64,000 nt of DNA, from the NCBI GenBank assembly GCA_973895155.1, contig OZ316895.1:18671880-18735879 (forward strand), written 5' to 3'. This document shows, piece by piece, positions 1 to 30,664 of this stretch. Source of the DNA: Marsupella aquatica. Its lineage: Eukaryota; Plantae; Marchantiophyta. Position 1 is the stretch's first letter. Each line of letters begins with the position of its first letter. Made by a program: the position numbers and the translations under genes. The notes under the pieces were generated by a model, which saw nothing but the letters and a program-made list of their open reading frames with translations, made no database searches and was not told the DNA's origin.

Positions 1-48
1 GAAGAAAAGACAGAGGAGAAACGAAGGAAAAAGCAAGATACTACTCCG

Positions 49-3000
49 GTGCAGCCAGCGATAAATACACCCCCGGAAAAGGACGATGACTACCGACGGG
101 ACGACCCGAAGCTGTTCTTCCCCCGCATCGAAGAATTGGTAAAGAAACAGCTGGAGGCTTACGAAGCTCGGGAATACCAGAAGGCAATCGATAAGGACAT
201 CAAAGCAGCCGAGACAGCCCGGCGACAGGAGCAAGAAAAGCAAGATAAACAAGAGGAAGCCAAGCAGCAGCCAACGAAAGAAACAAAGGAGGACTATGAT
301 ATTAAGGAGGACGTGAAGAGTTGCCCGGTTACAGCGACGGTGGGGCAACTGCTGCAGAACAACCCACAGTACAGACGACAACTGAGGGAGTTGCTCATGG
401 GTCGCCGAAGGAGGAGACTACCCCGAGTTGGGAGTGCGGACTGCAACATGATATGCGAGGACCTTGGAGCGCCGGACATCTCGATCAAAATTAATAACTG
501 TACCATCAAGATGGTTCTTGTAGACGGAGGAGCGGGAGTCAACATCATGACTGAAGAAACGTCAATCAAGTTAGGATACCTCACGTATCAACCCACGGTC
601 CGAGCTATCAGATTAGCAAACGGGGCAAGGGTCCTCCCATTAGGCACGCTCACACGAGTGCTCACTCTGGTGGGAGGGGTAGAGTTCTATCTCAACTTCT
701 TAGTCATGAGGCCGGTTCGTCCCTCCTCTTACCCGGTTCTTCTGGGCAGGCCGTGGTTGTACGGTGGCTGCGTAGTCACGGATTGGGGAAAGAAGGAGCT
801 ACGGTTCGGGGAACCCACCGTACGGGTATCCTGGGCAATGGACGATTATCAGGGAGAAACCCCACAAGGACCCGAGGAATATGATTCGGAGACCTCGGAG
901 GAAGAGGAACTCAATATGATCGAACTCATCTCGTCCCTATCCGAGGAAGATGTCTTCGGAGTTGAAGCAACCCGAGAAACACATCTCCTAAATTACCCGA
1001 GGGCTGCCATTGTGTCCACCCCAAGCACATCTACTGTCGGGGATGAGGAAACACACGAACAACTCGTCAAGACGGAGGACACGGCTCCAGCTAAGCAGGG
1101 AGCCGAGGCTACTCCTTCCATTTCAGAGCCACGTAACCATGAACCAGCCCAACAACTGCCTGAGGCCGAAAACTCGAGACCGAGACATAAAAAGCGAGTC
1201 TCATGGGATCCGTCCATTCCGCAATTGGAGGAAGTAAACCCCATCCCGAGACCAATCCCGGCCCCACCCATGTACGGAGGAGTTCGGTTAGCTGAGCTTG
1301 ACGCGAGCCTGGACCCGAGTCTGCGAAACCAGGTTGAAGTCATCAGGAAGGAGCACTACCGGAAGTACACTATTGGGATGGACAAATCTTTTAACCTGGG
1401 CCACGCTCTGATGGGGAAGGCTGAAAAATCCATCCAAGCTTTGCTCAAGGAATATGAAGATGTGTTTGCATGGAGTCATCATGATTTAACAGGCGTCTCC
1501 CCCGAGTTGGGAGAACACACGATCGATCTGAACCTAGGAGCCCATGCGGTACGACAGCAACAACGTCACATGAATCCGAGGTACTCCATCTTAGTGAAGG
1601 AGGAAATTGATCGTCTCCTCGCCGCCGATATCATTTACCCGGTAATGGCCAGCGACTCGGTCTCTCCCATTGTCATTGTACCAAAGAAGGGAGGTACGGA
1701 TGGAAAACCTAAGATTCGTATCTGTCAGGACTACCGTAAGCTGAATGACGCAACCCGAAAAGACCATTACCCATTACCATTCACGGATATGGTTCTAGAT
1801 ATGGTGGCCCGAAATGAAATCTATACATTTCTTGACGGGTATTCAGGTTATAACCAAATCTGGATTCGTCTCGCGGATCAGCTCAAAACAACTTTCACTA
1901 CGGAGTGGGGGACGTTCGCATTTCGGAGGATGCCTTTTGGTCTGTGTAACGCCCCGGCCATGTTTCAGCGCCTTATGATGAATATCTTCCACGATTTCCT
2001 ACGGGAATTTTTGGAGATATTTATCGATGACTTTGCCATCTTCGGAACCGTTGCCATGCACCCCGAACACCTACGACGAACGTTGCAACGATGCCGAGAT
2101 ATTAACCTCAAACTATATCCCGCCAAATGCTTCTTCGGGGTAGAGGAGGGGGTGTTACTCGGGCATCGTGTGTCCAAACGGGGCATTGAGGTGGACCAAG
2201 AGAAAGTTGCGGCCTGGATGGCGGTGGTTTTCCCCTTGGATCAAAAAGCAGTACGATCCTTCTTGGGCTGCGTAGGGTATTACCGCCGGTTCATTAAAGA
2301 CTTTGCTAAAATTGCGTTGCCCTTAACTGAGATGATGAAGAAGGATGCAGTGGTCGAGGAGACACCCCGAAGACGGATTGCTTTTGAGGAACTCCGTAAA
2401 CGACTCACCACCGCGCCTATCATGGTCACCCCAGACTGGAATAAGGAGTTCCACGTGTATGTCGATGTGTCAGGGTTCTGTATCGGATCCGTACTTAGTC
2501 AGCTAGATGAGGATGGACGTGATCACCCCATCTATTTTGCTAGCCGTCAACTATTTGCAGCCAAAAAGAATTATTCCCCCACTGATCGAGAAGCTTTGGG
2601 AATAATCTACTCGTGTAAAAAGTTCCGACACTATCTGCTAGGCTACAAGGTCATTTTCCACACGGATCATGATAGCCTGAAGTACATGGTCAACAAAGCG
2701 GATGTGACAGGACGGATAGCCCGGTGGGTGCTACTTCTCCAGGAATTTAATTACGAAGTTCAGGTTCGGCCAGGAAGGGTACACCTCAATGCCGATTTCT
2801 TTTCATGACTGGACGGCGTACCAGTCGATCAGCCAATTGATGATATTTTTCCGGATGAGGAGTTGTTCCACGTGGGGGAAGGGACACCAACGTGGTACGG
2901 CTCAATAATCACCTTCCTTTTAACAGGCCGCATCCCTGACGGCATCAATCAGGAGGCCGCCGCTGTGTTTTTACGGAAAGCCGGGCCTTACGTCATGATA

Positions 3001-4233
3001 CAGGGTCACCTACATAAGGAAGGTATTAATGGAAAGTTATGACGCTGCTTAGAATATAAGGAGACACTTATCGTGATACGGGCCCTGCATGAAGAAGAAG
3101 CTGGAGGCCATTTCGCGGCAGTTACGACAGCCCGAAAGATTTTGGACTCGGGGTATTGGTGGCCTACGTTGCATCGGAATGTACAGCGCTTCATTAAGGG
3201 TTGTGACTTGTGTCAGCGAGCGGGGGCCCCGAGGCGGGCTCATCATCACCCGCTCACATCTGTGCTTCCATTGGCACCATTCGAAAAATGGGGAATTGAT
3301 TATATCGGGCCGTTCACTCCCGTTACCCGAAGGCGAAGGTGCAGGTACATCCTATTAGCTATTGATTACTCCACCAAATGGGTCGAAGCGCGGGCTATGG
3401 TAAAGGACGACGCCGCAACCAGTGCCAGATTCTTATACGAACAGATTTTCACCCGATTCGGACCGCCCTTAGAATTGGTAAGCGACCGTGGAACCCACTT
3501 CCTCAATGACACCGTAGCCCAGCTTACGGAGCGTTACCTAGTCAAGCACCGCAAAACTACCCCATATCATCCTAAAGCCAACGGGATGGCGGAGAGAGCA
3601 AATGGTATCATTGGGAAGATCCTCAACAAAACTGTAGCTGCGCACAAAACGGATTGGGATGATAAGTTGTACGCAGCGGTGTACTCGTATAATCTAGCTT
3701 ACAAAACTACTACGAGTCACAGCCCGTACTTTCTGGTGTTCGGCCAACATTCGTTGGTGCCCGTCGAATTTGAAGTGCACACTCCACGGGTCAGCATTCG
3801 GGATCGCTTACCTGAATCTGAAAGTCTGTCAGATCGAGCTTATCAGATTGAAGCCTTGGAAGAAGCACGGCTACTGGCAGCTCGACACACCGTGAAGAAA
3901 CAGGCAACTTCGAAGAAGCAGCACGACAAAGGACTACGGAGGGTCGACGTCGTGGCAGGCGATCTAGTCCTTCTGTACGATAGAAGGTACATGCAGTTTC
4001 CAGGGAAGCTGCATACCCGGTGGTTGGGGCCCTTCCTTGTCAATCAGATCTACCGAAACGGATCTTTGGAGCTTGCGACGTATACCGGCGATTTACTCCC
4101 CACGCGAATCAGCTACGATCATGTAAAAAAGTACCACCATCAAGATGACGACGCCGATAGCGATGTTCGCGAGGGCGCTTCACAATTAAGCAGGGAGCTA
4201 TGTGACGCCGCCGGTACGGCGGTTAATGAGTGA
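49..4233 (+). pseudogene. gag-pol remnant (protease, RT, RNase H, integrase) with two in-frame TGA stops
   Basis: Protease VLVDGGAGVN; RT FLDGYSGYNQI and IFIDDF; RNase H FHVYVDVS; integrase HEEEAGGH..CDLC, WGIDYIGP, SDRGTHF. TGA stops at 2806-2808 and about 3040 are consistent with CGA>TGA. The ORF runs 33 nt into the LTR. Confidence 0.93.
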
Positions 4234-4558
4234 TTCAGTCTAACTGCGCTCTGCATGCGCGTTAGGTGGGTCTTAGGCCGCTATTATTAGCATAACGACA
4301 GTATTTAGGTAATCATTAGGGGTAGGACATCATTAGGCAATAAGGGGGACTTCAGGTTTGGACTGGCGGCGGGTCGCTATTCGCACACCCGGGTTACGAG
4401 CGTGGAAGGGCCCCTCCCTCGGGTCCGTATAACGAACTTAAGGAAGCGGCCACTGACGCACGCTGACTCAGACCGGCGGAGTGGCCGGTACACCACAAGC
4501 GTGAGCGGTTCAGCCTATGGGCGTCGAGGAGACGTCGGGGATCGACAAGCCCTCAAAG

Positions 4559-4565
4559 TATAAAA
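4559..4565 (+). promoter_or_regulatory. Candidate TATA box in LTR-C
   Basis: TATAAAAGGG about 360 bp into the LTR and about 100 bp upstream of the ATG at 4667; conserved at 27116-27122. Confidence 0.6.
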
Positions 4566-4666
4566 GGGGAGCCAACCCTTTGTAGTGCACCAGTCCATCA
4601 GTCCGCGCGCCAACTTCGACCCCAGTTCTCTCGTTCTCTCTAGGTTGCCACTACTATCTCCTTTGA

Positions 4667-7312
4667 ATGTCGCACACGATCCTCTCTAGCTTGGCCATTC
4701 AATTCTGGACGCAGTTCCTATCTACCGGAAGGCACTTGGCCGATTCATTGAAACACGCCAACCCGCGCCGATATGAAATCGAACGCGAATACGAGAGAGC
4801 CATCCGCCTAGCAGGACGACACCACTATGTCCTTAACTTTGACTACCCGTCTCAGAGTGAGCTTTACCGACCAGCAGAGGTATCTGGGTACTTCTTCAAC
4901 GAAGACAAATATATCGAGTTCTGGGAAGCATTGCTTCGGCTTCCGGACGAGGTCTTCAATATCCCGGGTATAATCGACCTGCAGCGACATCACTTCGACC
5001 ACATCCCTGCCCGGGTTCGGGCTGTCATTAACGGCGAGTCCAGTACCAACCGTTCGACAAGGGCGTCCGCACTCGCTTCGGAGAACTTCTACCAGCACCT
5101 GCAGAGCTTCATGGGAACTCGGCCATCAACCAACATGACCAACTCAGCCGTGCCCGTACCCGTACCCGTGCCCATGCAACCCCAGCCTCAACCTTAGGCT
5201 CAGCTTCAGCTTCAGCCTCAGCCGCAGCCTAGCCAAACCCCACCACCTATCACCCAGCCAGCACAGGTACGCTCCGTCATCAACGCTGTGGATCTTAGCG
5301 ATGACGACGAGGCTACCCCACCCTTGACCAGGCGGCCCAGAGGAACAAGCGCTCGGGGGGCCGACACTATGTCGTCCCCACCCCCTGCTCTGACCCCAGG
5401 AGCGGCCCCAGCAGACAACATGGTGACCGTGGCCGCCCCGGGCCCGTTACCAACGGCAGTGGCACTCCCCAGGCCTGATCGGGAGGATGGGGAAGTATCA
5501 CCTTCCCCGAGTCAGTCATGGGGAAAGAAGAGGAAGGAATCCGCCACTGCATCCGGGTTACCGTTGGCCACGGTAGCCGTAGCCAAGGTGACGATGCACC
5601 GCATGGGGGAAAACGTTCACAGCAACATCCTCCATCCCAAGCATGCGGTGTACCTGAAGACTCAGGGATTTGAGCACCTCACCTCTCTCCCCTGGAACAC
5701 TTGCAGGTACTACGGGGAGGACATGATAGAATTCGTCAAGAATTATGACGACGTACGTCAACAGACTCGGCTGCAGGGAAGGAATATGTCCCTCACAGAA
5801 GAACGGCTCAAGATGATCTTCGGGTTACCCGAAGGTGACCATCGAGTCGAATCACGGGCTCCCGGGGGCAAGGGGGCCAAGTACCAATCTTCAAGTTTTC
5901 CCTCAGAGGGAGCAGTAGACAACGGGTTCGTGATGAGGACCTGCCTCATGCCCGAGATAGCTGAGCGGCTGGAGTTCCAAAGGTACGCTCTCCACATGAT
6001 GGAACCCCGGGGGGAGATCTCCGCCGCCCAGGTTATCCAGGTCGAGAACTATCGACCTAGGAAATGGGCGTCGTACTTCGCTAAGAAATTCCATGAAGAG
6101 ATGGAGCGGCGAAGGAAGACGCTGTACATTGGCGGGAAGGCGTATTTCGCTAGCCACATCGAAATCATTCTTGAGTGGTACGCCCGGTTTGATCGACGAA
6201 CCCTTCCCCGCATCAACGTTACAAAGCTGGTCCCAGCTAGGTGGGTTTTTCCGGCATTGGAGAGACGGCCCCAACCCGAGGCCCGAAGTCCAGTGGACAC
6301 GCCAGCTTCACCCACCCCACCTCCACAAATAGCTGTAATCGTAACCGAGGAGGCGCCGGAGGGGTCGGTCGTCGCAACCGTTGATGCGACCCAACTAGCC
6401 GGGCTAAGTACAGAAGTTGGTACGGCAGAGGTCTTACCCGAACCCGGGTCTCCCAATGACCCACCGGTGGCAATTCCGGAGAACCGGACATTGCTGCAGG
6501 AGGACACTCCAGCCCCTTCCTCCCCAGGGCTGGACGTCACTGCCCCGGCCCCTGCGCGTGTTGACGTCTGCCCGTGCCCAAATCCGGACAGGCACAACTT
6601 GGACCACCCGGAACTCTTCGTACAGGGTACGTTTCTGAACGGGCTTCTGGGAGATTTCTCTCATCAAATTGCCCGGGATACCGGGGAGTTCATGGCCCGG
6701 AAGGTAGCCTGTTTCTTCAATCAGGAGTTGGTTGCCGCCGTAAAGGCAGGTCGGGCCCTGTCGGAGGCCCTTCAGAGGATAGAGCGGTACCGGGTGGAGT
6801 CCGTGTACCTAAAGAACGAAGTGGCGGCTCAAGAGGCTGAGCTTCTGCAACTACGACCCAAGGTTGCAGCCACCGATGAGTTGTTAGCAAAGGCGCACGC
6901 TCTTACCGCCCTAGCCGAACAGGCCAAAGCTGGGAACGAGGCTGAGATTACACGACTCCCGAACTAGATTGACAGTTTGAAGAAACAAGCTGTCACCTGG
7001 CAGAAAGACCTGGAGGAGGCCGAGGAGCGAGCCCAGCGGGACACGGCGGAGATAGCCACGCTACAGGCCGAGATAGCGCGGCTCCAAACCGAGGCCGAGA
7101 AGCAGGACCAGCTGGCGGGTAAACTGACGAGCGACGCCCAGCAGCTGGAGGAGGCATGTCAGGAGGCAGCAGAGGAGATGGACGCGGCGAGGCGAGAGAA
7201 CGAATCTCTGCTGGACCAGGTCCAGCTCCGCAAAGCGGACAATGACAGGCTTCGAAGGCAGCGGGATGGCCGTTCCCATTCGGGCGGCTCTAGCAAGCGT
7301 GCCAGGCATTAG
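4667..7312 (+). pseudogene. LTR-internal ORF-C (881 codons): N-terminal domain, basic NLS-like patch, plant-transposon-protein/PMD-like domain, low-complexity linker, coiled coil
   Basis: ORFs 4667-5197, 5288-6967 and 6977-7312 share one frame and are separated by single TAG stops; both codons are CAG in the solo copy. Core motif LPW..DMIEFVKNY..TRLQGRNMSLT..IFGLPEG. Confidence 0.85.
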
Positions 7313-8208
7313 CGGCGGAGTAGGAATAGATTAGGATTAGGATTGGCTTAGTCAGGCTCTTGGGACAGGCACCTGCCTTAGGTACAGCAGCGCTGCCCTG
7401 TTGTCCAGCCTGCGTAGATTAGGATCTTCTAATAAGACACAGCCGTTTTCCGGCCTGACTGTCAGCTTAGTTAGGACCTTAGTCAGCAAATCTTCGGTGA
7501 GAGGACACCCCGTCCCTCGGTTCTTAGTATTTAGTGCACCCCTCGGTAGAGGCAGGGGGGTTTTTAGTTTCAGAGTCGGACATCCGCGGGATATGCGGGG
7601 AGTCCCGACCTCTGGGAATGAAAGAGTACCAAGGGGAGGGGGTAGGACTAAGCTCGCCGGGCGAGTGCGGAGCCGGGCTCTGTTGTAGTGTGCACCCTCG
7701 GCCTTGAACCTGTTCATTCCAGGGCTGTCGGGTCAACTAAGTGTACGCATATGTTCCCTTTGTAGTAAAATCCTTTCCCATCATTTTCCTTCGTGTAAAT
7801 CGAGATTGTATGCATGTGTGCGCATATGTGTGTGGGTTTCTCGTATATGGGTGGCAGCGCCAGGCCGAACGCACTACCCGAGACGTGCACAGGGTGCAGC
7901 CTGCGGGTAAGTGGTTGCGAGCACGGGTTGAGGACCTGTATCATCGAATCCGGATCGAAGGCGGACAGCACGAAGGCTTAGAAGCCCTTAAGCCAGGGTC
8001 GATCCTGCTATCGACTAAGGTATGTTCCGGCGGCGGAACATAAACTATACCTAGGAGGTGTCTGTATTTAGCAGTATGCGCACTTAGCGCTAGTTTACGA
8101 GAATAAGGTGCATTACGTGCTTCCCTTCTTGCCCGAACCCTCAGATTTACGAGAGATGTGCCTGTCTAAGCTGAAGTCTGAGTTAAGGCCGAAGCCTACG
8201 ACGTGACA

Positions 8209-11200
8209 TCTGTTGCTCAGGCAAGCCCTCGGGGTGGAAGCACATACCGACAATCAACTCAAGAAGGGTATGAGCAATGTCAATCAAGCTACTCATTTTT
8301 GGGGATGCCTGTTAGAACGGGCAACTGAGTACATTGGGACCTAGGAGGACGAAGAATCAGAGAGAGCAGCTCGAGAACGGCAGGAGCTTGCTCGGCTATG
8401 GGAGCTACATAAGTCTGCTTTCTTAGGAGGAGAACTCATTACGGCTGAATTCTTGTGGACGCCTACTGCCGACGAACTCGACGGTCTTCTGTTTTGTGAG
8501 AACAAAATAGTTGGCATCCGGGAGGCCATCAACCGTTGCAACAACATACACTGGGAGTTGAAGGGTAGCACGGAGGGGTGGACAAAGGCAACCGTGCTAG
8601 GAGAAACATCCACGGCAGCCGCTATGAAGAGGAAAGGGAACAACAACAAAGAAGCCACCCCTGCAAAAAGAACAAGGTCGGCGGCACCCAGGAAACCAGC
8701 AGAGCAGGGAAGCATGAGGCAAGCGGAAGCCAAAGAGGAGGAGGTTGACCCCATCAATGCCGTTCCAACAAGAGATGACACCTGGAAAGGCTGGGCGGCG
8801 ACCCTCCCCGAGGAGGTGCAATTACACTTTGCACGGGAAGAGGATGCATGCTTTACGGATATGCAGACTCGGAAATACCAGGGCTTCATGGCCGGATCCG
8901 GCTTGGAAGAAGCCATAAAGTTACCATGGCTGAAACCGGAGGTGCCGGATTCAGACTTACTAGAATTCATGGGATCATGGGAGCCCGAGACCAATTCCAC
9001 AAGGGTGTATGGGAAGGATTTCTATCTCACTCCCCGGGTGATTGCCGAAATATTTGGCTTGCCGATGGGCAATAAGACCAAAATAGATACTAGGAAGACG
9101 TTGCTAGACAAGGAGTTCCGGTCGTTTCTAGGGCCATCAACAAATAATGGCTTCTTCTGAAACACCTGCACAAACCCGCACATAGGAGAAATGATCAATT
9201 TCTTGTAGGTGACCATGCATTGTAACTTGCCGAGGGCAAAGATCGGCAAGGCACAGGTCTATCTGGGGGAGAGGCCAGACCCAAGCCGAGACTACAACGG
9301 GTACCTCCTCACCCAACTGAAGAAGATCTTGAAGGAGGAACAGCTGGTGATCGGCATGGGAAGCGTGTCCCGGCTTGGTTATCATATGCCGCTGTTGTGC
9401 CGGTATGCCCAAAGTCAGATATTCACCCTGGTACTGCCCCTACAGGCAAGAGCACCATAGGAGGTTGGGGAACTGAGGCCAGCAACAGAGAAACCGACCC
9501 AACCCGACAGTCCTACAATTGAGCAGGCGTTTAGGCCGAGGAAGGAGGACTTGCCGATGCAGCAACCAGGCATGCAGAATCTGCTGAAATTGCTGGAGAA
9601 GGAAAGGAGAACGGCAACGGCAACGGGACCAGTACAAAATACTGCTCCCAAAGTCGGCCTTAGCCAACTTACCAGGGAAAACCCCTTTACCGGGGTCAAG
9701 GAGAGAAGGGGGCTGGAACACGAGCCGGGAGTCCGAATGTATGTAGGAGCTTCAAGTCCCGAAGCCGAGGAAAAGTAGCCCAAAGCTCCTGGTCGCGACA
9801 AGGAGAAGATGAGATCAACATGGAAGCCGGAGGAACCAGGACCCGTGATCTGTGAGGCCGTGTTCATGGCAAGACCAGGACAGCAGCGTGGGGAGCCGGT
9901 AGTCCATGCCGAGGACGAGGCGGTAGAAGGCTACGACAATGATGACTCCGGCTACGGGTCGGACCATCATGTTCCAGGAATAAGGACCTGTGGCAGGTTC
10001 ATCCCCACTCTTCCAAGAGTAGTTCGAGGGGACCCGACCCAGTAGAGCAGCCCCGAGTCTCCCCCACCAGATGTCACTCCCCCTAGCTTTGACGGCATAA
10101 AACAGACAGCACATGAATTTCAGGAATGACTAAGGGAGGAAGAAGAGGCAACCCTGGCTAGGGAGAAAGATTTACCAGGAGGAGAATGGCCAGAGGACAT
10201 CAGGCGGCTTGCAGAAAAATGAAGCAGCCCTCCAGCCACGATAGAAGAAATTTGCAAGGCGGCTTGGGAAGAAAGGCCGTGGTGGATGATGCCGATGACT
10301 TCTACTCACTCCGCCTATGCTAAAGAAAGAGCCATGGAGTACGGGGAGATGTGTGGGGAACTTGCGCTCGGCATCTTTGGGGAGGAGTTTTGGAGCAGGG
10401 ACCCTTTTTCCAGAGGGAAATGTTGGAGAACTGCCAATTAGAAGAAGCGGTGGCTTTGGAGAGAAGCAAGAAGGACGAGGTCACCCGTCAACTTAGGGGC
10501 AGGGAAGCCAAGGTAGAAGACCTGAAGGCGGCCAAGAAAGCCCAAGATGAGCTGCAGATTAAGCGGCATGAGCTCAACATCATGCAGGGGCAATTGGATA
10601 CCGCGCAGTCTGATAATCAGATTATCAAGGATAAACTGACTCGGACCCAAGGTGAGCTGGCCAATTTGATCAAGGAGAAGGAGAAGTGGAAGCGAGAGCT
10701 GAGAGACGCAGAGGAGGCCCACATAGCAGCCAACAATCGGGCCATGGCGGAAACTCAGAGAAGGGAAAGGGCGCTGAAGGGGGAACTCGAGGATATCCGC
10801 GGAGCCCTTGAGCAGAAGGAAGCCGAGTTAGGAAAATCCTATCAGGCGATCATTGTGCTACGGTAGGAGCTCGGATCCATGATGGCCAGCTTCAAGGCCG
10901 ACCTGCGTGAGAAAGACAACCAGCTCGACCAGACTTATGCCAAGATGAATAAACTGGAGTCTCAGGTTGTTACGGAGCTCGACAAGGAGCTGAGAGCAAC
11001 CCAGGAGGAGAGGGCTACCTTAAAGAAGGAATTGGAGGAAGCCCAAAAGGAGCAGAAGGAGGCGCGCAAGGACCTGGATGAATTGCAAGAGGAGTTGGAG
11101 GAAAGCACGCGGAAGATGGAGAACTTACAACGGCGAGCCGACAACCCAAAGGAGCGACTGAAGAAACAGGCCGCAGTATTTAAGTGCTTGGCTTCCTCAG

Positions 11201-12045
11201 GTCCAACTCCAATTGGGGCAACCAAGTTGCCAGGAATAGTACTGGCCGAAGGACAAGCCGAGACACTCGCACCGGTGCCGGAGGTAAGTGGCAAGGGGAA
11301 GGGGCCAGCTGCCGAACCAAAGAAGAAGAAGAAGCAAAAACCTTTTGGGTCAGGGAGTAATACGACTCCTCAAGCCGTCGTGACCAAGGAGGTAAACCCA
11401 ACACCAACCTCAGGCAGTGTCACGGCAGAGGATCCAACTGCCCTAGAAGGCGGGGATGGCAAAGCCGAGGCCAGGATACTCGGTGATGAAGCCAGGGTAC
11501 CGGATCCACCACTAGAGCATGCCGGGGAGGCCATGGCCGATGTTGAGGCCGAAGCCGAGGGTGGACCTAGTCAGGCCGATGGAGAGTTGACTTGGTCCGG
11601 AGCAGGTAATCTGTCAGAGGACGGACCTACGGTAGTGGCTGCGGAGGAAGTGTTGGGGGTGTCCATTGAGGACCAGACACCGCTGCCATGACGGTGGTGG
11701 AGGGCCGCTCCTTTTAAGGAGGACGGACATGGAGGGAGGAGGCGTGAGTGGGTAGGGCGGGCTCAGATCTCCAAGTTTAGAATTAGGATCAGGACCAAGG
11801 GGCGGCCCTGACACTTAGCTTAGTGGGATTGCGGATCCACTGGTAAGAGCAACACTTGTGCTCCTGCCTCGCTATACATAGGTAGATTATAGTTAGGTAG
11901 ATTAGGCTTACGCTGCAAGGAATTAGGCGGATCCACTACCAGGATAAGTACCTAGGCAGCGGGGAGTTTAGGGCCTTCTTCCTTAGCAAGTTTTTAGTGC
12001 ACCAGCAGGGCTGGGATCAAGTAGTTAAAGAAGCTCTCGGTTAGT
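8209..12045 (+). repeat. Family B LTR copy 1 (partial; target of the family C element), with ORF-B remnant 8209-11691 on +
   Basis: Reverse-complement homology to about 16275-20103; begins immediately after the CA of LTR-C; multiple stops and frameshifts. Confidence 0.9.
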
Positions 12046-13680
12046 CCACGGGTCCTTATTCCGGGGACATGATGGTCCGACCCGTAGCCGGAGTCATCAT
12101 TGCCGTAGTCCTCCACCACCTCCTCCCCAAATTGGACTGGCGACTCCCCTCGCTGCTCTCCTGGTCTTGCTGTGAACACGGTTTCCTACCAATCATAGCT
12201 CACAGGTCCTAGTTCCTCCTCCAGCTTCCAGGCTGTCTTGTCCCTCTATTTCCCGTGAACAAGAGCCTTAGGCTGCCTTCCCTCGGCTTCTGGACTTGAG
12301 GCTCCTACATACATTCAAACCCTCGGCTCGTGTTCCGGCCTCCTTCTTTCCTTGGCTCCGGTAAAGGGGTTTTCCTTCATGAGTTGGCTTAGGCCGACCT
12401 TTGAAGTAGTGTCCTGTACCTGTGCCGTTGCTCGTTGCCATTCTCTTTTCCTTCTCCAGCAATTTCAGCAGATTCTGCATGCCTGGTTGCTGCATCGGCA
12501 AGTCTTATGTCCTTGGCCTAAACACCTACTCGATTGTAGGACTGTCGGGCTGGTTTGGTTTCTCTATTGTCGACCTCTATTCCGGATAGAGATAGAAACC
12601 CTTCCCATACACCCTTGTGGAATTGGTCTCGGGCTCCCATGCATGATCCCATGAATTCTAGTAAGTCTGAATCCGGCACCTTCGGTTTCAGCGATGGTAA
12701 CTTTACAAAGACTTCCAAGCCGGATCCGGCCATGAAACCCTGGTATTTCCGAGTCTGCATAGCTGTAAAGCATGCATCCTCTTCCCGTGCAAAGTGTCAT
12801 TGTTGGAACGACATTGATGGGGTCGACCTCCTCCTCTTTGGCTTCCGCCTGCCTCATGCTTCCCTGCTCTGCTGGTTTCCTGGGTGCCGCCGACCTTGTT
12901 CTTTTTGTAGGGGTGGCTTCTTCGTTGTTGTTCCCTTTCCTCTTCAGAGCGGCTGCCGTGGATGGTTCTCCTAGCACAGTTGCCTTTGTCCACCCCTCTG
13001 TGCTACCCTTCAACTCCCAATGTATGTCGTTGCAGCGGTTGATGGCCTCCCGGATGCCGACAATTCTGTTCTCGCAAAACAGAAGGTCGTCTAGCTCGTT
13101 GCCAGTAGGTGTCCACAGGAATTTGGCCTTGATGAGTTCTCCTCCTAAGAAAGCAGACTTTTGCAGCTCCCACAGTCAAGCGAGCTCGTGCCTTTCTTGA
13201 GCTGCTCTCTCCAATTCTTCATCTTTGTAGGTCCCAATGTACTCAGTTGCCCGTTCGAACAGGCATCCCCAAAAATGAGCAACTTGATTGACGTTGCTCA
13301 TACCCTTCTTGAGTTGATTGTCGGTATCTGCTCCCACCCCGAGTGCTTGCCTAAGCAGCTGACAATAGTTGGTCTCCCGTAGTCGTCTGCTTAGTTTGTG
13401 CTTGCAAATGAGCCACCATTCCTTGCGATCGGTCCTTACACCCCCCCTTTGCCCGGTCTTCCTTCCCCTTGGTTACCCATAGCCGCCGGTACTTAGCGCA
13501 CCCTAACCCTAATTGTGTTCCCTCCCCCGGCGTCCTTACTTCCGGCCTTGGCTCGGGTTCCATAGTCACCCTTAATTGTTTATATTTTCCAATTTTTTGT
13601 TACTATACTAATGTGTTTCCAGGGTACACTACTGATTTTACTATTTAAACTGGCCTAGTGATTCCTGGCTAGGCATCACA
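12046..13680 (-). repeat. Family B LTR copy 2 (terminal fragment, opposite orientation, two internal deletions)
   Basis: Ends GGCATCACA at 13680, as at 20418. Deletions near 12585 and 12797 relative to the other copies. Abuts the integrase of element A. Confidence 0.9.
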
Positions 13681-15722: not shown

Positions 15723-18700
15723 TGTGGTGCGTCCCATGGCTCCCTAAACCCAAGAAACCCCTCTGCACAAGCCGATTCCCGCAGGTTTAGCTCTTGGCGA
15801 GGCGGATTTTGCGGCTTAGCGGCATGGGACGCTGCTAACTTCCTTCTACTATTATTACTATTAACATTTTACTCACAGATACTGGACAGATCCTTCATCG
15901 GGTCATGAGATACGTAGCCAACCTATTCTAGGCCTTCCCTTGTCCTCCTCTCTTGGCTTTCCTTTAGGTATGTTTGGATTCCACCGCCGGAATGATCCCC
16001 AACTGGCTTGGGTAAGCCGCTAAGACCTCTCTCAGCTTGACACATCCAACTCTTACTACCTCGCTTACTCCCTTCTTGGTTGATGTGGGCAATCTTTAAA
16101 CAGGTTAATGCGACACACAAATAGCAAAATGACTCCTTCTGACTGAGTTATACCATGCACTTGCCATACAAACAGTACTTCTCATATACAAGATCTACAA
16201 ACTAAGCCGTGAGGCCAACTCTATTCATCTCTTAGGTATGAGGAAACATGACTATACACAAGGGTCACAGTATAACTAACTGAGAGCTTCTTTAACTACT
16301 TGATCCCAGCCCTGCTGGTGCACTAAAAACTTGCTAAGGAAGAAGGCCCTTAACTCCTCGCTGCCCAGGTACTTATCCTGGCAGTGGACCCGCCTAATTC
16401 CTTGCAGCATAATCCTAATCTACCTAACTATAATCTACCTATGTACAGCGAGGCAGGAGCACAAGTGTTGCTCTTACCAGTGGATCCGCAATCCCACTAA
16501 GCTAAGTGTCAGGGCCGCCCCTTGGTCCTGATCCTAATACTAAACTTGGAGATCTGAGCGCGCCCTGCCCACTCACGCCTCCTTCCTCCATGTCCGCCCT
16601 CCTTAAAAGGAGCGGCCCTCCACCACCGTCATGGCAACGGTGTCTGGTCCTCAATGGACGCCCCCAATGCTTCCTCCGCAGCCACTATTGTAGGTCCGTT
16701 CTTTGACAAATTACCTGCTCTGGATCGAGTCAACTCTCCATCGGCCTGACTGGGTCCACCCTTGGCTTCGGCCTCAGCATCGGCCACGGCCTCAGATACG
16801 GTTACGGCCTCCCTGGCATGCTCTAGTGGTGGATCCGGTACCCTGGCTTCATCACCGAGTATCCTGGCCTCGACTTTGCCATCCCCGCCTTCTAGGGCAA
16901 TTGGATCCTCTGTCGTGACCCTGCCTGAGGTTGGTGTTGGGTTTACCTCCTTGGTCACGACGGCTTGAGGAGTCATATTACTCCCTGACCCAGAAGGTTT
17001 CCGCTTCTTCTTCTTCCTTGGTTCGGCAGCTGGCCCCTTCCCCTTGCCACTTACCTCCGACACCGGTGTGAGTGTCTTGGCTTATCCTTTGGCCAGTACT
17101 ACTCCTGGCAACTTGGTTGCCCCAATTGGAGTTGGACCTGAGGAAGCTAAGCACTTAAATACTGCGGCCTGTTTCTTCAGCCGCTCCGTTTGGTTGTCGG
17201 CTTGCCGCTATATGTTCTCCATCTTCCGCGTGCTTTCCTCCAACTCCTTCTGCAATTCATCCAGGTCCTTGCGCGCCTTGTCCCGCTCCTTCTGGGCTTC
17301 CTCCAATTCCTTCTTTAAGGTAGCCCTCTCCTCCTGAGTTGCTCTCAGCTCCTTGTCGAGCTCCGTAACGACCTCAGACTCCATTTTATTCATCTTGGCA
17401 TAAGTCTGATCAAGCTAGTCGTCTTTCTCACGCAGGTCGGCCTTGAAGCTGGCCGTCAGGGATGCAAGCTCCTGCCGCAGCATGATAATCGCCTGATAGG
17501 ATTTCCCTAACTCGGCCTCCTTCTGCTCAAGGGCTCCGCGGATATCCTTGAGTTCTCCCTTCAGCACCCTTTCCCCTCTATGAGTTTCCGCCATGGCCCG
17601 ATTGTTGGCTGCGATGTGGGCCTCCTCTGCGTCTCTCAGCTCTCGCTTCCACTTCTCCTTCTCCTTGATCAAATCGGCCAACTCTCCTTGGGTCCGAGTC
17701 AGTTTATCCTTGATAATCTGATTATCACACTGCGCGGTATCCAATTGCCCCTGCATGATGTTGAGCTCATGCCGCTTAATCTGCAGCTCATCTTGGGCTT
17801 TCTTGGCCGCCTTCAGGTCTTCTACCTCGGCTTCCCTGGCCCTAAGCTGACGGATGACCTCGTCCTTCTTGCTTCTCTCCAAAGCCACCGCTTCTTCTAA
17901 TCGGCGCTTCTCCAACATTTCCCTCTGGAAAAAGGGTCCTTGCTCCAACTCCTCCCCAAAGATGTTGAGCGCAAGTTCCCCACACATCTCCCCGTACTCC
18001 ATGGCTCGTTTTTTAGCATAGGCGGAGTGAGTAGAAGTCATCGGCATTATCCACCGCAGCCTTTTTTCCCAAGCCGCCTTGCGGATTTTTTCTGTCGTGG
18101 CTGCAGGGCTGTTTTGTTTTTCTGCAAGCCGCCTGATGTCCTCTGGCCATTCTCCTCCTGGTAAATCTTTCTCCCTAGCCATGGCTGCCTCTTCTTCCTC
18201 CCTGAGTCGTTCCTGAAACTCCTGTGCCATCTGTTTTATGACGTCAAAGCACGGGGGAGCGACATCTGGTGGGGGAGACTCGGGGTTGCTCTGTTGGGTT
18301 GGGTCCCCTCGAACTACTCTTGGAAGAGTGGGGATGAACCTGCCACAGGTCCTTATGCCAAAGTCATCATTGTCGTAGCCTTCTACCGCCTCCTCCTCGG
18401 CTTGGAGTACCGGCTCCCCCCGCTACTGTCCTGGTCTTGCCGTGAACACGGCCTCACAAATCACGGGTCCTGGTTCCTCTGGCTTCCACGTTGATCTCAT
18501 CTTCTCCCTGTCGCGACCAAGAGCTTTGGGCTGCTTTTCCTCGGCTTCAGGACTTGAAGCTCCTACATACATTCAGACTCCCAGCTCGTGTTTTGGCCTC
18601 CTTCTCTCCTTGACCCCGGTAAAGGGGTTTTCCCTGGTAAGTTGGCTATTAAGGCTGACTTTGGGAGCAGTATTTAGTACCGGTCCCGTTGCCGTTGCCA

Positions 18701-20418
18701 TTCTCCTTTCCTTCTCCAGCAATTTCAGCAGATTCTGCATGCCTGGTTGCTGCATCGGCAAGTCCTCCTTCCTTGGCCTAAACACTTGCTCGATTGTAGG
18801 ACTGTCGGGCTGGGTCGGTTTCTCTATTGTCGGCCTTGGTTCCGGAACCTCCTCTGGTGCTCTTGCCTGCAGGGGCAGTACCGGGGCGAATATCTGACTT
18901 CGGGCATACCGGCACAACAACGGCATATGATAACCAAGCCGGGACACGCTTCCCATGCCGATCACCAACTGTTCCTCCTTCAAGATCTTCTTTAATTGGG
19001 TGAGGAGGTACCCATTGTAGTCTCAGCTTGGGTCTGGCTTCTCCGCCAGATAGATCTGTGCCTTGCCAATCTCTGCCCTCGGCAAGTTGCAATGCATGGT
19101 CACCCGCAAGAAATCGATCATTTCTCCTATGTGCGGGTTTGTGCAGGTGTTTCGAAAGAAGCCATTCTTTGTTGATGGCCCTGGAAATGACCGGAACTCC
19201 TTGTCTGGCAAGGTCTTCCTTGTATCTACTTTGGTCTTATTGCCCATCGGCAAGCCAAACACTTCGGCAATCACCCGGGGAGTGAGATAGAAATCCTTCC
19301 CATATACCCTTGTGGAATTGGTCTCAGGCTCCCATGATCCCACAAATTCTAGTAAGTCTGAATCCGGCACCTTCGACTTCAGCCATGGTAACTTTACGAA
19401 GGCTTCCAAGCCAGATCCGGCCATGAAGCCCTGGTATTTCCAAGTCTGCATAGCCGTAAAGCATGCATCCTCTTCCCGTGCAAAGTGTAATTGCACTTCC
19501 TTGGGGAGGGTTGCCGCCCAGCCTTTCCAAGTGTCATCTCTTGTTGGAACAGCATTGATGGGGTCAGCCTCCTCCTCTTTGGCTTCCGCCTGCCTCCTGC
19601 TTCCCTGCTCTACTGGTTTCCTGGGTGCCGCCGACCTCATTCTTTTTGCAAGGGTGGCTTCTTTGTTATTGTTCCCTTTCCTCTTCATAGCGGCTGTCGT
19701 GGATGTTTCTCCTAGCACGGTTGCCTTCGTCCACCCCTCCGTGCTACCCTTCAACTCCCAGTGTATGTCATTGCAGCGGTTGATGGCCTCTCGGATGCCG
19801 ACTATTCTGTTCTCACAAAACAAAAGATCCTCAAGTTCGTCGGCAGTAGGCGTCCACAAGAATTCAGCCGTAATGAGTTCTCCTCCTAAGAAGGCAAACT
19901 TCTGTAGCTCCCACAGCCAAGCGAGCTCCTGCAGTTCTCGAGCCGCTCTCTCCGATTCTTTGTCCTCGTAGGTCCCAATGTACTCAGTTGCCCGTTCGAA
20001 CAGGCATCCCCAAAAATGAGCAGCTTGATTGACGTTGCTCATACCCTTCTTGAGTTGATTGTCGGTATCTTCTTCCACCCCAAGTGCTTGCCTGAGTAGC
20101 GGACAGTAGTTGGCCTCCCGTAGTCGTCCGCTTGGCTCGTGCTTGCAAATGAGCCGCCATTCCTTGCGATCGGTCCTTACCCCCCCTGGCTGGTCTTCCT
20201 TCCCGTTGGTTACCCATAGCCGCCGGTACTTAGCGCGCCCTAACCCTAATCATGTTCCCTCCCCCGACGTCCTTACTTTCGGCCTTGGCTTGGGTTCCAT
20301 AGTCACCCTTAATTGTTTATATTTTCCCTGTTTTTGTTACTATACTAAGGTATTTCCTAGGGTACACTCTTGATTTTACTATTTAAACTGGCCTAATGAT
20401 TCCTGGCTAGGCATCACA
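15723..20418. repeat. Family B solo LTR, complete, 4696 bp
   Basis: TGTG(G/A)TGC...GCATCACA terminal inverted repeat; perfect TSD CTCTC (15718-15722 and 20419-20423); no gag/pol inside. Confidence 0.9.
16629..20300 (-). pseudogene. LTR-internal ORF-B (about 1220 codons), homologous to ORF-C, with a long C-terminal coiled coil
   Basis: Chain of minus-strand ORFs from the ATG at 20300 (MEPKPRP) to EDQTPLP-stop. Motif LPW..DLLEFVGSW..TRVYGKDFYLT..VFGLPMG. Lesions mostly differ among the four copies. Confidence 0.82.
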
Positions 20419-20423
20419 CTCTC

Positions 20424-26756: not shown

Positions 26757-29700
26757 TGTGACGCCGCCAGTACAGCGAGTAATGAGTAATTCGGTCTAAA
26801 CCGTGCCTAGCACGCGCGTTAGGAGCATCTTAGGCCGCTATGATTAGCATAACGACAATATTTAGGTAGCCATTATGAGTAGGAAATCATTAGTCAATAA
26901 GGGGAATTCATGTTCGGGCTGGCGGCGCGTCGCCATTCGCACACCTGGGTTACGAGCATGGAGGGGCCCCTCCCTCGGGTCCGTATAGCAAACTTCGGGA
27001 GGCGTCCACTGACACGCGGTGACTCAGACCGGCGGAGTGGCCGGTACACTACAAGCGTGAACGGTTCAGCCTATAGGCAACGAGGAGATGTTGGGGGATC
27101 GACAAGCCCTCAAGGTATAAAAAGGGAGCCGACCCTTTGGAGTGCACCAGTCCATCAGTCCACGCGCCAACTTCGACCCCAGCTCTCTCGTTCGCTCTAA
27201 GTCGCCACTACTATCTCCTCTGAATGTCGCACACGATGCTCTCCAGTTCGGCCATTCAATTCTGGACGCAGTTCCTATCTACCGGAAGACACTTGGCCAA
27301 CTCATTGAAACACGCCAACCCGCGCCGATATGAAATCGAATGCGAGTATGAGAGAGCCATCCGCCTAGCAGGATGACACCACTACATCCTTAACTTTGAC
27401 TACCCATCTCAGAGCGAGCTTTACCGACCAGCAGAGGTATGTGGGTACTTCTTTAATGGAGACAAATATATCGGTTTTTGGGAAGCATTGCTTCGGCTTC
27501 CGGACGAGGTCTTCAATATCCCGGGTACGATTGACTTGCAACGACATCACTTCGACCACATCCCTGCTCAGGTTCGGGCTATCATCAACAGTGAGTCCAG
27601 CACTACCCGTTTGACAAGGTCATCTACACTTGCTTCAGAGAACTTCTACCAGCACCTACAGAGCTTCATGGGAACTAGACCCGCAACCACCGGCGCCAAC
27701 CCAGTCGACCCCATACCCGTATCCGCACCAACGCAGACTCAGGCTCAGGCTCAACTTTAGTCTCAGTCTCAGCCTAGCCAACCCCCACCGCCGATCGCCC
27801 CGCCAGCAGTACAAGTACGCTCTGTCATCAACACTGTGGACCTTAGCGACGACGACGAGGCTACCCCACCCTTGCTCAGGCGGCCCAGAGGAGCAAACAC
27901 TCAGGGGGCCGACACTATATAGTCCCCTCCCCATGCTCGGACCCAAGGAGCGGCTCCAGCAGACAACACGATGACCGTGGCCGCCCCGGGACCAATACTA
28001 ACGGCGGTAGCACTACCTATGCCCGATCGAGAGGATGGGGAGGTGTCACCTTCCCCGAGCCAGTCACGGGGGAAGAAGAGGAAGGAACCCGCCACTGCAT
28101 CCGGGTTACCATTGGCCACGGTAGCCGTGGCCAAGGTGACAATGCACCGCATGGGGGAAAACGTGCATAAGAACATCCTCCATCCCAAGCATGCAGTGTA
28201 CCTGAAGACTCAGGGATTCGAGCACCTCGCCTCTCTCCCCTGGAACACTTGAAGGTACTACGGGGAGGACATGACAGAATTCGTCAAGAATTATGATGAC
28301 GCACGTCAACATACTCGGCTGCGGGGAAGGAATATGTCCCTCACGAAAGAACGGCTCAAGATGATCTTTGGATTACCCGAAGGTGACCATCGAGTCAAAT
28401 CACGGGCTCCCGGGGGCAAGGGAGCCAAGTACCAATCCTCGAGTTTTCCCTCAGAGGGAGCAGTGGACAACGGGTTCGTGATGAGGACCTGCCTCATCCC
28501 CGAGATAGCTGAGCGACTAGAGTTCCAAAGGTACGCCCTCCACATGATGGAACCCCGGGGGGAGATCTCCGCCGCCCAGGTTATCCAGGTCGAGAACTAT
28601 CGACCTAGGAAGTGGGCGTCGTACTTTGCTAAGAAATTCCATGAAGAGATGGAGCGGCGAAGGAAGATGTTGTACATTGGCGGGAAGGCGTATTTTGCTA
28701 GCCACATCGAGATCATTCTTGAGTGGTACACTCGATTTGATCGACAAACCCTTCCCCGTGTCAACGTTACAAAGCTTGTCCTTGCTAGGTGGGTTTTTCC
28801 GGCCTTGGAGAGACGGCCCCAACCCGAGGCCCAAAGTCCAGCGGACACGCAAACTTCACCCACCCCACCTCCACAAGTAGCTGTAGTCGTAACTGAGGAG
28901 GTACCGGATGGGTCGGTTATCGCAACCATAGATGCGATCCAACAGGCCGGGCTAAGTACAGAAGTCGGTACAGCGGAGGTCTTACTCAAGCCCGGGTCTC
29001 CCAAAGACCCACTGGTGGCTATTCCGGAGAACCAGACATTGCTGCAAGAGGACACTCCAGCCCCTTCCAACATTACGTCCCCAGGGCTGGATGTCACTGC
29101 CCCGGCCCCCGCGCGTGTTCACGTCTGCCCGTGCCCAACTCCGGACAGGCACAACCTGGACCACCCGGAACTCTTCATACCGGGTGGTCCAGGTCTATCC
29201 TCTGACCTGGCCCAGTCAGAGTTCCGGGTGGTCCAGGTCCAGAGGATAGAGCGGTACCGGGTGGAGTCCGTATACTTAAAGAACGAAGTTGTGGCTCAAG
29301 AGGCTGAGCTTTTGCAACTACGACCCAAAGTTGCAGCCGCTGATGATTTGTTAGCAAAGGCGCACGCCCTTACCGCCCTAGCCGAGCAGGCCAAAGCTGG
29401 GAACGAGGCCGAGATTGCACGACTCCGGAACCAGATTGACAGTTTGAAGAATCAAACTATCATCTGGCAGAAGGATCTGGAGGAGGCCGAAGAACGGGCC
29501 CAACGGGACACTGCGGAGATAGCCACGCTACAGGCCGAAGTGGCACGGCTCCAAACCGAAGCCGAGAAGCAGGACCAGCTGGCGGGCAAGCTGACGAGCG
29601 ACGCCCAGCAGCTGGAGGAGGCAACGGAGGAGACAGATGCGGCGAAGCGAGAGAACGAATCTCTGCTGGACCAGGTCCAGCTCCTCAAGGCGGACAACGA

Positions 29701-30664
29701 TAGACTTTGTAAGCAGCGGGATGGCCGCTCCCACTCGGGCGGCTCTGGCAAGGGTGCCAGGCATTAGCGGCGGAGTAGGAATAGAATAGGGTTAGGAGTA
29801 GCTAAGTCAGGCTATTGGGACAGGCACCTGCCTTAGTTACAGCAGCACTGCCATGCTGTCCAACCTGCGTAGATTAGGATCTTCTAATAAGACACAGCCA
29901 TTTTTTGGCCTAACAGTCAGATTAGTTAGGACCTAAGTCAGCGAATCTTCGAGCGGGAGGACACTCCGTTCCTCGGCCCTTAGTATTTAGCGCACCCCTC
30001 GGTAGAGGCAGGGGGGTTTTTAGTCTCAGAGTTGGACATCCGTGGTATGCGTGGGGAGTCCCGACCTCTGGGAGTGAAAGAGTACCAAGGGGAGGGGGTA
30101 GGACTAAGCTCGTTGGGCGAGTGCGGAGCCAGGTTCCGTTGTAGTATACTCTCTCGGCCTTGAACCTGTTCATTCCGGAGCTGTCGGGTCAACCAAGTGT
30201 ACGCACATGTCCCCTATGTAGTAAAATCCTTTCCCATTATTTTCTTCGTGTAAATCAAGATTGTATGCTTGTACGCGTGTATGTGTGTGTGAATCTCGTG
30301 TATAGGTGGCAACGCCGGGCCGAACGCACTACCCGAGTCGTGCACGGGGTGCAGCTTGCGGGTATGTGGTTGCGAGCATGGTTTAAGAACCTGTATCATT
30401 GAATCCGGATCGAAGGCGGACAATACGAAGGCTTAGAAGTTCTTAAGCCGGGGTCGATCCTGTTATCGACTAAGGTACGTTCCAGCGGTGGAACATAAAC
30501 CATACCTAGGAGATGTCCGTATCTAACAGTAGGCGCACTTAGCGCTAGTTTACGTGAATTAGGTGCATTACGGGCTTCCCTCCCTGCCCGAACCCTCATA
30601 TTTACGAAGGAGGTGCCCGTTTAAAGCTGAAGCCCGAGTTAAGGCCAAGGCTGATGACGTGACA
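26757..30664 (+). repeat. Family C solo LTR, 3908 bp, containing ORF-C remnant 27224-29767
   Basis: TGTGACG...CGTGACA; perfect TSD TGGGC (26752-26756 and 30665-30669); excision restores gag AEKLELAH-AHYEAS in frame. Confidence 0.95.

Follow-up and report, generated by a model that had tools for sequence, protein, structure and literature searches.

A gene under purifying selection within a probable 4-kb LTR of an Athila-like Ty3/gypsy element

The 64-kb stretch of DNA analysed here (the window) contains a 4-kb unit that is very probably an LTR, and inside it lies an 881-codon ORF that has been shaped by purifying selection. The unit follows the gag-pol of a Ty3/gypsy element that is most likely Athila-like and from a probable liverwort, and the core of the encoded protein is predicted to fold like VANC21, which counters silencing of its transposon in Arabidopsis. 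We propose that this protein is a DNA-binding anti-silencer of its own family, and put the probability of this combined reading at about one half. Features are located in Table 1, where A and B are the two copies of the unit (family 1) and family 2 is another family in the window that is arranged in the same way.

Table 1. Location of features in the window
Feature	Position	Strand	Basis or remarks
3' part of gag-pol (protease, RT, RNase H, integrase), single frame	1..4233	+	Pfam; internal stops 2806, 3040
Polypurine-tract-like AAGCAGGGAG, 3 nt 5' of the unit	4188..4197	+	sequence; putative function, from position
3' LTR (most likely), copy A, 4,008 bp	4201..8208	+	ends, solo copy, contig breaks, no internal repeats
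Six TTAG(G) words, all on one strand; weak candidates for binding sites	4262..4336	+	word counts
TATA box TATAAAAG, predicted TSS near 4592	4559..4566	+	only TATAWAWR in the unit, either strand
881-codon extra ORF, two internal TAG stops	4667..7312	+	colinear with the unbroken 906-aa protein P0044
Helical N-terminal domain, conserved, ~120 aa	4667..5041	+	model pLDDT 80
Core domain, residues ~302-513, predicted VANC21/PMD-like fold	5570..6205	+	model pLDDT 88.9
Likely coiled coil, then basic C-terminal tail (KRAR, possible nuclear signal)	6830..7270	+	sub-threshold Pfam, basic clusters; putative function
Second cluster, 12 same-strand TTAG words just past the ORF stop	7309..7567	+	word counts
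Two splice-donor-like sites, G|GTAAGT 7907 and AG|GTATGT 8020	7907..8025	+	sequence; donor-like in B too
29-nt block TTCCRGCGGYGGAA...ATACCTA, candidate cis element	8025..8053	+	also in family 2, in its 3' non-coding part
Family-2 solo unit, 4,696 bp, TGTGATG...CACCACA	15723..20418	-	GAGAG duplication
Family-2 1,137-codon ORF, six internal stops	20042-16629	-	homologous to the family-1 ORF
Solo copy B, 3,908 bp	26757..30664	+	88% identical to A; TGGGC at 26752-26756 and 30665-30669
ORF of copy B, four internal stops	27224..29767	+	alignment to the copy A frame

The terminal repeat and its host element

The domains of the upstream gag-pol occur in the Ty3/gypsy order by Pfam (for integrase, Integrase_H2C2 1.6e-11 and rve 1.8e-11), and its frame runs 33 nt into copy A before reaching a stop. 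An earlier note had called the unit an LTR, and our analysis agrees: it adjoins integrase and the purine tract, its TG..CA ends form a short inverted repeat (TGTGACG at the start and CGTGACA at the end of copy A, complementary at 6/7 bases), and it recurs alone with a perfect 5-bp target duplication. Such solitary occurrence is seen for copy B (TGGGC), which interrupts a gag-like frame of another element, and for the family-2 unit (GAGAG). Copy A is not flanked by a duplication (AGCTA and TCTGT on its two sides), which is what a 3' LTR should show when its partner is located upstream of the window. It sits ~315 bp into a family-2 unit, position 315 of which follows directly. The window begins within gag, and the 5' partner would lie outside it. 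The earlier note had pointed to short direct repeats inside the unit, acting as the true LTRs, as an alternative to be looked for. No direct repeats of at least 16 nt occur within copy A or copy B, which leaves hidden short LTRs unsupported, and we rejected this candidate.

Contigs from public runs mark the 3' boundary, with matches ending exactly at 8208/8209 in three of four runs (two studies, one of which may be the source of the DNA analysed here). Past this point, at least 13 contigs have unlike flanks (agreement 0.51-0.57), and at least 10 contigs, in 3/4 runs, share the 13-base TAGCCTTTGTTTT and then diverge. This sequence is possibly the internal start of the element. It is not a TGG-type PBS, its longest complement within the LTR is 7 nt (no self-priming complement of at least 10 nt was found there), and it is absent from the REXdb supplements examined. 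A TGGCGCC-type PBS (tRNA-Asp/Asn) was not found among the contig ends listed, a sample outside which short high-depth junction contigs may lie, nor were tRNA genes found in the 64-kb window. Summed contig depth of the unit relative to pol is 4.2x (X1) and 4.9x (X2), a rough hint and not a copy number; each unit bin exceeds each pol bin. Scans of metagenome and viral contigs recovered no copy of the element: the 18 metagenome loci with the 19-base junction pattern are chance matches unrelated to it, and viral contigs gave no match to integrase and one 16-residue match to the ORF core, for which similarity was not confirmed.

These observations bear on whether the unit could be a separate, non-autonomous TG..CA element that is moved by an integrase and stands beside an unrelated pol by chance. 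The contig ends listed include no canonical PBS, and every other copy of either family in the window is solo or partial, as a separate element would allow. Set against this are the missing duplication of copy A, its start 3 nt after the purine tract with the pol stop inside it, and the one downstream sequence common to at least 10 contigs at its 3' end, so that we consider a separate element very improbable.

Neither a chromodomain nor a second RNase H was identified by Pfam in gag-pol (residues 937-1013, unscanned, are too short for an additional RNase H, aRH), and the spacing from the single RNase H region to the integrase zinc finger is ~110 aa. Membership in Tat (Ogre, Retand, TatI-III) was rejected because the aRH domain was not found. 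The lack of an aRH and of a chromodomain and the 5-bp duplication are compatible with Athila; a 5-bp duplication is reported for 95% of Athila elements, and 4 bp for Phygy and Selgy (PMC6317226).

Selection on the internal gene and its relatives

The earlier note had described a complete 881-codon gene. A frame of this length does lie inside the unit, but it is not intact, as copy A has two stops and copy B has four stops and a deletion (net 90 nt missing near codons 650-700). The note's further claim, that the stops of copy A are readable in the other copy, is correct: the TAG codons at 5195 and 6965 are sense codons in B. Likewise, the stops of copy B (codons 51, 179, 233 and 343) are all sense codons in A.

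The dN/dS comparison that the note had proposed, made here between copies A and B, gives 0.24 (bootstrap 0.18-0.31) against a neutral expectation of ~0.71 (600 simulations with medians of 0.71-0.72 and a minimum of 0.48), indicating purifying selection. Third positions account for 136/244 differences in the ORF (0.56), compared with at most 0.40 in neutral simulations. The ORF indels are 3, 9, 12, 12 and net 90 nt, and all six non-coding indels are single bases. The LTR-internal gene was almost certainly functional.

We identified homologues in 42 clusters at E <= 1e-3. Those looked up are from Calypogeia fissa (a liverwort) in 4/10 cases, which are all those with an organism name, and P0044 aligns to the ORF end to end (E 2e-85). 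Further word-indexed protein searches gave no new relatives (two matches had already been found), including none among proteins of 1,587-4,530 aa, and no pol-like sequence was found in the 57 collected proteins.

Family 2 has a homologue of this gene, placed in its unit as in family 1. The two proteins share 27% identity over 185 aa (E 5e-18), and no DNA alignment between the families was found at E < 0.6. The family-2 ORF has dN/dS values of 0.43 and 0.30. The presence of a selected gene inside the repeat in two families lacking alignable DNA implies that young solo LTRs can be genes.

Predicted structure and function of the protein

The core model aligns with VANC21 (9LNK) over 209 residues with a VIA Z of 8.4 and an rmsd of 4.2, a moderate match given that, per the tool, unrelated models often reach Z 7-8. 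VANC21 is the only chain with Z >= 5 among 48,161 (the next has Z 2.5), and another VANC21 structure (9LNJ) is the top Foldseek match (probability 0.90, E 0.049); sequence identity is 7-10%. The viral structure library gave nothing at E <= 0.001. Pfam PMD (PF10536), DUF1985 or ATHILA (PF03078) domains were found in 0/45 alignment members, the ORF protein itself has no Pfam match to DUF1985 or DUF287, and Atlas matches to PMD/ATHILA-type families score only 0.78-0.79 and are leads at most. For the N-terminal domain, there was no Atlas match and no clear known family or fold (best structure-search Z 5.7, with many ties).

The only match to the core model is VANC21, so the protein can likely be grouped with the VANC/PMD domains, which extra ORFs of Gypsy elements are known to encode. 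A structural relationship links VANC to PMD proteins (PMC13547354; 10.1101/2024.09.27.615353), and PMD domains have been reported from Gypsy elements (PMC5418596, PMC6317226). The type of protein thus likely has precedent, and the new part would be its position inside the LTR.

VANC21 removes methylation and binds a short motif, copies of which cluster in non-coding regions of the TE that encodes it (PMC5735166). PMD-C proteins are found associated with DNA motifs and counteract Polycomb (10.1101/2024.09.27.615353). The PMD proteins MAIN and MAIL1 were first described as promoters of silencing (PMC5418596). On the predicted structure, the protein encoded here probably binds DNA and protects its own family against silencing, and we give an anti-silencing or self-activation role slightly better than even odds. 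A shared fold alone shows no function.

The protein may instead be a scaffold for particles, packaging or integration targeting, acting through its coiled coil, which would make it comparable to the functionally unassigned Athila ORF. The long coiled-coil-like region and the moderate strength of the VANC21 match leave room for such a role, the ATHILA ORF is presented without an assigned function in the text of 10.64898/2026.03.20.713144, and coiled-coil pentamers are predicted for Athila as well as VANC proteins (PMC13547354). We regard a scaffold as doubtful, however, as the sole matching solved structure is that of a sequence-specific DNA-binding anti-silencing protein and the related PMD-C proteins act on DNA motifs and Polycomb as described above.

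Comparison with known systems

Genes encoded in LTRs are known from retroviruses (MMTV sag, the HIV nef overlap and foamy virus accessory ORFs), where they are located in U3 and are for the most part either short or only partly within the LTR. The unit described here likewise has coding sequence within the terminal repeat, but differs in that a whole 881-codon gene makes up two thirds of a plant LTR and follows its only TATA box. Plant LTRs are regarded as non-coding, and in the surveys consulted, extra ORFs stand either ahead of gag or in the interval from pol to the 3' LTR. Phrase matching in the literature (most subscription journals and Repbase fall outside it) found no plant element with a gene inside the LTR.

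Beyond its domain order, its lack of a chromodomain and of an extra RNase H, and its 5-bp duplication, the element resembles Athila (REXdb non-chromovirus/OTA/Athila) in having a sense accessory ORF after pol and a weak Atlas score to ATHILA clusters (0.78). Unlike that of Athila, which is placed in the internal region downstream of gag-pol (10.64898/2026.03.20.713144; PMC7264820), the ORF is inside the terminal repeat, is kept in solo copies and has no PF03078 match. With the PMD-A ORFs of Tat/Ogre (PF10536), it would share a Gypsy-encoded PMD-type domain, by predicted fold kinship through VANC; a PMD-type domain occurs in 57% of Ogre elements, and LTRs reach ~5 kb in Tat/Ogre (PMC6317226). 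It differs from these in lacking an aRH and a PF10536 match, in lying inside the LTR and in its extra N-terminal domain. VANC21 of VANDAL21 (DUF1985) is similar in the predicted core fold and likewise serves as an accessory protein of a TE, with a coiled coil and disordered parts that vary, but its TE is a Mutator-like DNA transposon, not a retrotransposon of a likely liverwort, and VANC is called dicot-specific in PMC13547354. Rice Retrosat2/FRetro3 also have giant LTRs (over 3.2 kb), many solo copies and an extra ORF (PMC3485330); unlike here, their ORF0 is upstream of gag-pol and is treated as apart from the LTR in that source.

The predicted VANC21 fold suggests a function that can be tested for one class of Gypsy accessory ORFs, and the finding bears on whether PMD/VANC domains originated in retrotransposons or in hosts.

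Expression and proposed mechanism

The TATA box that the earlier note had placed at 4559, upstream of the ORF, stands as the sole TATAWAWR of the unit and is kept in copy B (at 27116). Family 2 has no strict TATAWAWR, only TATAAAC, 280 nt before the ATG. The TATA-to-TSS spacing of -32 from maize LTRs (10.64898/2026.05.08.723830), applied here, would start the RNA near 4592. U3 would then be ~390 bp, and the gene would lie in a long R, first on the RNA. We find a location in R rather than U3 reasonably probable.

A cassette in U3 is the alternative, in which the TATA box at 4559 would serve the gene only, genomic RNA would come from a TATA-less promoter in the last 400-900 bp, and R and U5 would be short, in the way of retroviral genes in U3. 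This arrangement would avoid a 3.6-kb strong-stop DNA and a 2.6-kb ORF ahead of gag. The last 310 bp, with two donor-like sites and the inter-family block, resemble a leader, and poly(A)-like UGUA words occur 400-525 bp from the unit end in A, B and family 2 (in copy A, UGUA and a GU-rich stretch near 7740-7850). We think it unlikely, as the one TATAWAWR is near the 5' end of the unit in both copies and no downstream promoter motif was found.

With the gene in R, an RNA ending in the 3' non-coding part would let every LTR, whether 5', 3' or solo, yield the accessory mRNA, and one reading through into gag-pol would need splicing or a second start for translation. The layout bears on translation of gag-pol behind the gene, on read-through of the 5' poly(A) site and on strong-stop DNA length. 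The protein, with its N-terminal helical domain, disordered linker, VANC/PMD-type core and coiled coil, may oligomerise and bind a short word in the non-coding parts of the LTR (TTAG(G) is a weak candidate), and once bound would act in trans against DNA methylation or Polycomb marks. As reverse transcription puts the LTR at both ends, each new insertion would have two gene copies; LTR-LTR recombination would leave one, until decay as in A and B.

Only tentatively do we extend this to a liverwort Gypsy LTR that is a self-amplifying counter-defence, with a VANC-like gene in R that is doubled at each transposition and kept in solo copies (and possibly with priming by other than a tRNA end). If true, the route by which the host usually deletes elements would seed protective cassettes, and VANC-type anti-silencing would no longer be confined to DNA transposons of dicots but would include retrotransposons in early land plants.

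Non-coding parts and methylation

TTAGG occurs 10 times in the non-coding parts of copy A (2.4 expected) and 7 times in those of B (2.2 expected). Once all words are corrected for, the enrichment is borderline in A (10 versus a 95% shuffle maximum of 9) and does not reach this threshold in B or family 2; as TTAGG contains a stop codon, its contrast with the ORF is inflated. No tandem arrays of a 9-base motif, as for VANC21, were found. The 29-nt block occurs once in each of the four units that keep the region and nowhere else in the 64 kb, although the pattern was chosen post hoc and between 0 and 12 of 200 shuffles scored as high as the best local alignments of A/B against family 2. In their 5' non-coding parts, the two families are no more similar than shuffled sequences are, and predicted RNA folding of the last 330-400 bases of the unit is unremarkable (z -0.6 to +0.3).

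The CpG observed/expected ratio is 0.79-1.05 in family 1, compared with 0.26 in the Gypsy host of copy B and 0.42 in a nearby LINE; the high value of family 1 may reflect youth only. Between copies A and B, CG sites have changed at a rate of 0.114 and CHH sites at 0.046, and this faster change at CG sites suggests that both copies were likely methylated.

Structure of the repeat unit

The window opens inside a Ty3/gypsy gag-pol region, in which Pfam identifies protease, RT, RNase H and integrase in that order, all in a single frame interrupted by two stops. Downstream lies the unit under study (copy A of family 1). As the earlier note described, the unit recurs alone with a perfect 5-bp target site duplication; this solo copy (copy B) is inserted in a gag-like frame of a different Gypsy element. 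Copy A lacks a target duplication of its own at its flanks, and the sequence 3' of it is another repeat family (family 2), from its position 315 onward. Both are expected if a whole element inserted, with its 5' LTR upstream of the window. Short inner direct repeats, which the earlier note considered as the possible true LTRs, were not found: no direct repeat reaches 16 nt in either copy.

Features of the window and their coordinates
Feature	Position	Strand	Description
Purine tract	4188-4197		3 bases 5' of the unit start
Family-1 unit, copy A	4201-8208	+	4,008 bp; starts TGTGACG, ends CGTGACA
ORF in copy A	4667-7312	+	881 codons
Family-2 piece	8209-12045	+	adjoins the next piece head-to-head at 12045/12046
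Family-2 fragment	12046-13680	-	internal deletions
CpG-poor Gypsy	about 13681-31700	-	O/E 0.26; zinc-knuckle gag, protease, RT; contains the two solo LTRs, both flanked by perfect 5-bp duplications
Family-2 unit, solo	15723-20418	-	4,696 bp; TGTGATG..CACCACA; GAGAG duplication
Family-1 unit, copy B	26757-30664	+	88% identical to copy A; TGGGC at either flank
LINE ORF2	33145-35738	+	endonuclease and RT domains (Pfam)
Decayed coding region	about 43500-47600	-	multi-exon-like
T/A-rich repeats	49180-49540		several, short; CCATCTCGGC word recurring
Family-2 piece	50463-54190	-	5'-truncated
Ty1/copia remnant	61104-63848	+	integrase end, SH3, RVT_2

Public contigs from four sequencing runs of two studies, one of which may be the source of the window, were compared over 8100-8228, and in those from three of the four runs the match ends at 8208 or 8209. 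Beyond the unit end, at least 13 contigs from runs X1-X3 carry unlike sequence and at least ten share a 13-base sequence, TAGCCTTTGTTTT, before diverging. Such a mixture is expected where 3' and solo LTRs have random flanks and the internal region begins with a conserved stretch. TAGCCTTTGTTTT is possibly a non-canonical primer binding site; it is not of the TGG type, and no complement of it longer than 7 nt occurs in the unit. Its sharing could also derive from one amplified nested insertion. Summed contig depth, which is not a copy number, rises 4-5-fold at the unit start in the two deepest runs, a hint only that the unit is an LTR. Overall, we assign a probability of about 0.88 to the 4,008-bp unit being an LTR. 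No extra RNase H and no chromodomain were found in the pol of the element; these features and the 5-bp duplication point to the Athila lineage, rather than Tat, Phygy or Selgy.

Integrity and selection of the encoded frame

The earlier note reported a complete 881-codon gene in the unit. The frame is real but not complete, being broken by two stops in copy A and by four different stops and a net loss of 90 nt in copy B. In copy B, at window positions 29177-29241, about 54 nt stand in place of 144 nt of the ORF with the frame kept; the replacement includes a 21-nt inverted duplicate of neighbouring sequence and looks like template-switch repair.

The 881-codon frame was under selection. Between copies A and B, dN/dS is 0.24 in the ORF frame (bootstrap 0.18-0.31) and 1.2-1.4 in the remaining two sense frames. 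Because transitions dominate the differences between the copies, we ran 600 neutral simulations with the observed context-specific rates; these gave median dN/dS values of 0.71-0.72 and a minimum of 0.48. The share of changes at third positions is 0.56, compared to at most 0.40 in the simulations. All indels in the ORF keep the frame, and six of six non-coding indels are single bases. A library-wide search identified homologues in 42 clusters; four of the ten looked up are Calypogeia fissa proteins, the remaining six being unnamed or hypothetical, and this points to a liverwort as the probable host. An unbroken homologue of 906 aa (P0044) is colinear with the whole ORF, and the alignment takes in both the N-terminal domain and the basic tail.

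Predicted fold and related proteins

Pfam searches with the ORF protein returned sub-threshold coiled-coil matches only. The core (residues about 302-513) was modelled from a 45-row alignment with a pLDDT of 88.9. Among 48,161 solved chains, DNA-bound VANC21 is the sole match with Z of at least 5 (Z 8.4, rmsd 4.2, 209 aligned; next 2.5), and it also ranks first in Foldseek (prob 0.90, TM 0.50, E 0.049). The Atlas leads for the ORF are DUF1985, PMD and ATHILA, at 0.78-0.79, under the Atlas trust line; they agree in direction with the fold match. With moderate confidence, we predict a VANC21-like fold for the core, a likeness that does not in itself show function. The N-terminal domain is modelled as folded (pLDDT 80) and has no clear match in the Atlas or fold searches.

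VANC21 binds a 9-base motif, copies of which cluster on a single strand in the non-coding DNA of its own transposon, and strips methylation (PMC5735166). VANC has been likened to the PMD protein MAIN, and coiled-coil oligomerisation is predicted for VANC and Athila domains (PMC13547354). PMD-C proteins counteract Polycomb at DNA motifs (10.1101/2024.09.27.615353). Gypsy elements encode PMD-A clades, and MAIN/MAIL1 were initially found to promote silencing (PMC5418596).

A homologous gene in a second family

The solo family-2 unit carries a 1,137-codon frame with a core homologous to that of the family-1 ORF (27% over 185 aa, E 5e-18). A profile built without family 2 weakly matches its N-terminus in three copies (E 6e-4 to 0.02), in each case where it would be expected. 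Values of dN/dS of 0.43 and 0.30 indicate selection in family-2 copies too. No alignable DNA was found between the families, with the possible exception of a 29-nt block close to the 3' end, a pattern picked post hoc, after being seen. The placement of the gene within the unit is therefore likely older than the split of the two families.

In non-chromoviruses, extra ORFs that encode PMD or Athila domains are known, as are LTRs of up to 5 kb (PMC6317226). According to a review, such ORFs lie in the internal region (PMC7264820). In Retrosat2, ORF0 is treated separately from the giant LTR (PMC3485330), whereas here the gene lies inside the unit. Phrase searches of the literature found no plant LTR containing a gene, which is limited evidence.

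Putative transcription

The unit has one TATA box, present in both copies, and no ATG separates it from the ORF. From the TATA box we infer that RNA would start near 4592. If this is also the genomic start, U3 would be about 390 bp; the gene would come first on the RNA, and the strong-stop DNA would measure about 3.6 kb, as the earlier note argued. In a rival and rather unlikely arrangement, the gene would lie in U3 behind a promoter of its own, and genomic RNA would start at a second promoter further downstream. Transcription of an accessory mRNA, from whichever copy, could end in the UGUA-rich sequence 400-525 bp from the unit end; in copy A the poly(A) site may lie near 7740-7850. Two donor-like splice sites within the last 310 bp (7907 and 8020 in copy A) might play a part in gag-pol expression or in poly(A) read-through.

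Signals in the DNA and other features

TTAG(G) words form same-strand clusters at 4262-4336 and 7309-7567. TTAGG occurs 10 times in copy A, against 2.4 expected, barely above the all-words 95% bar; copy B and family 2 fall under it. CpG O/E is 0.79-1.05 in family 1, 0.26 in the Gypsy hosting copy B and 0.42 in the LINE. As tests of an anti-silencing role, these DNA signals are weak. CpG retention in family 1 is equally well explained by youth, since changes between copies A and B are still about 2.5 times faster at CG than at CHH sites.

The decayed coding region has no Pfam match in the one frame scanned and is possibly a DNA transposon. It contains an internal 440-bp duplicate (43595-44037 and 44649-45088, 68% alike) and recurring TAGCGCC(C/A)GGCGCTA-like palindromes.
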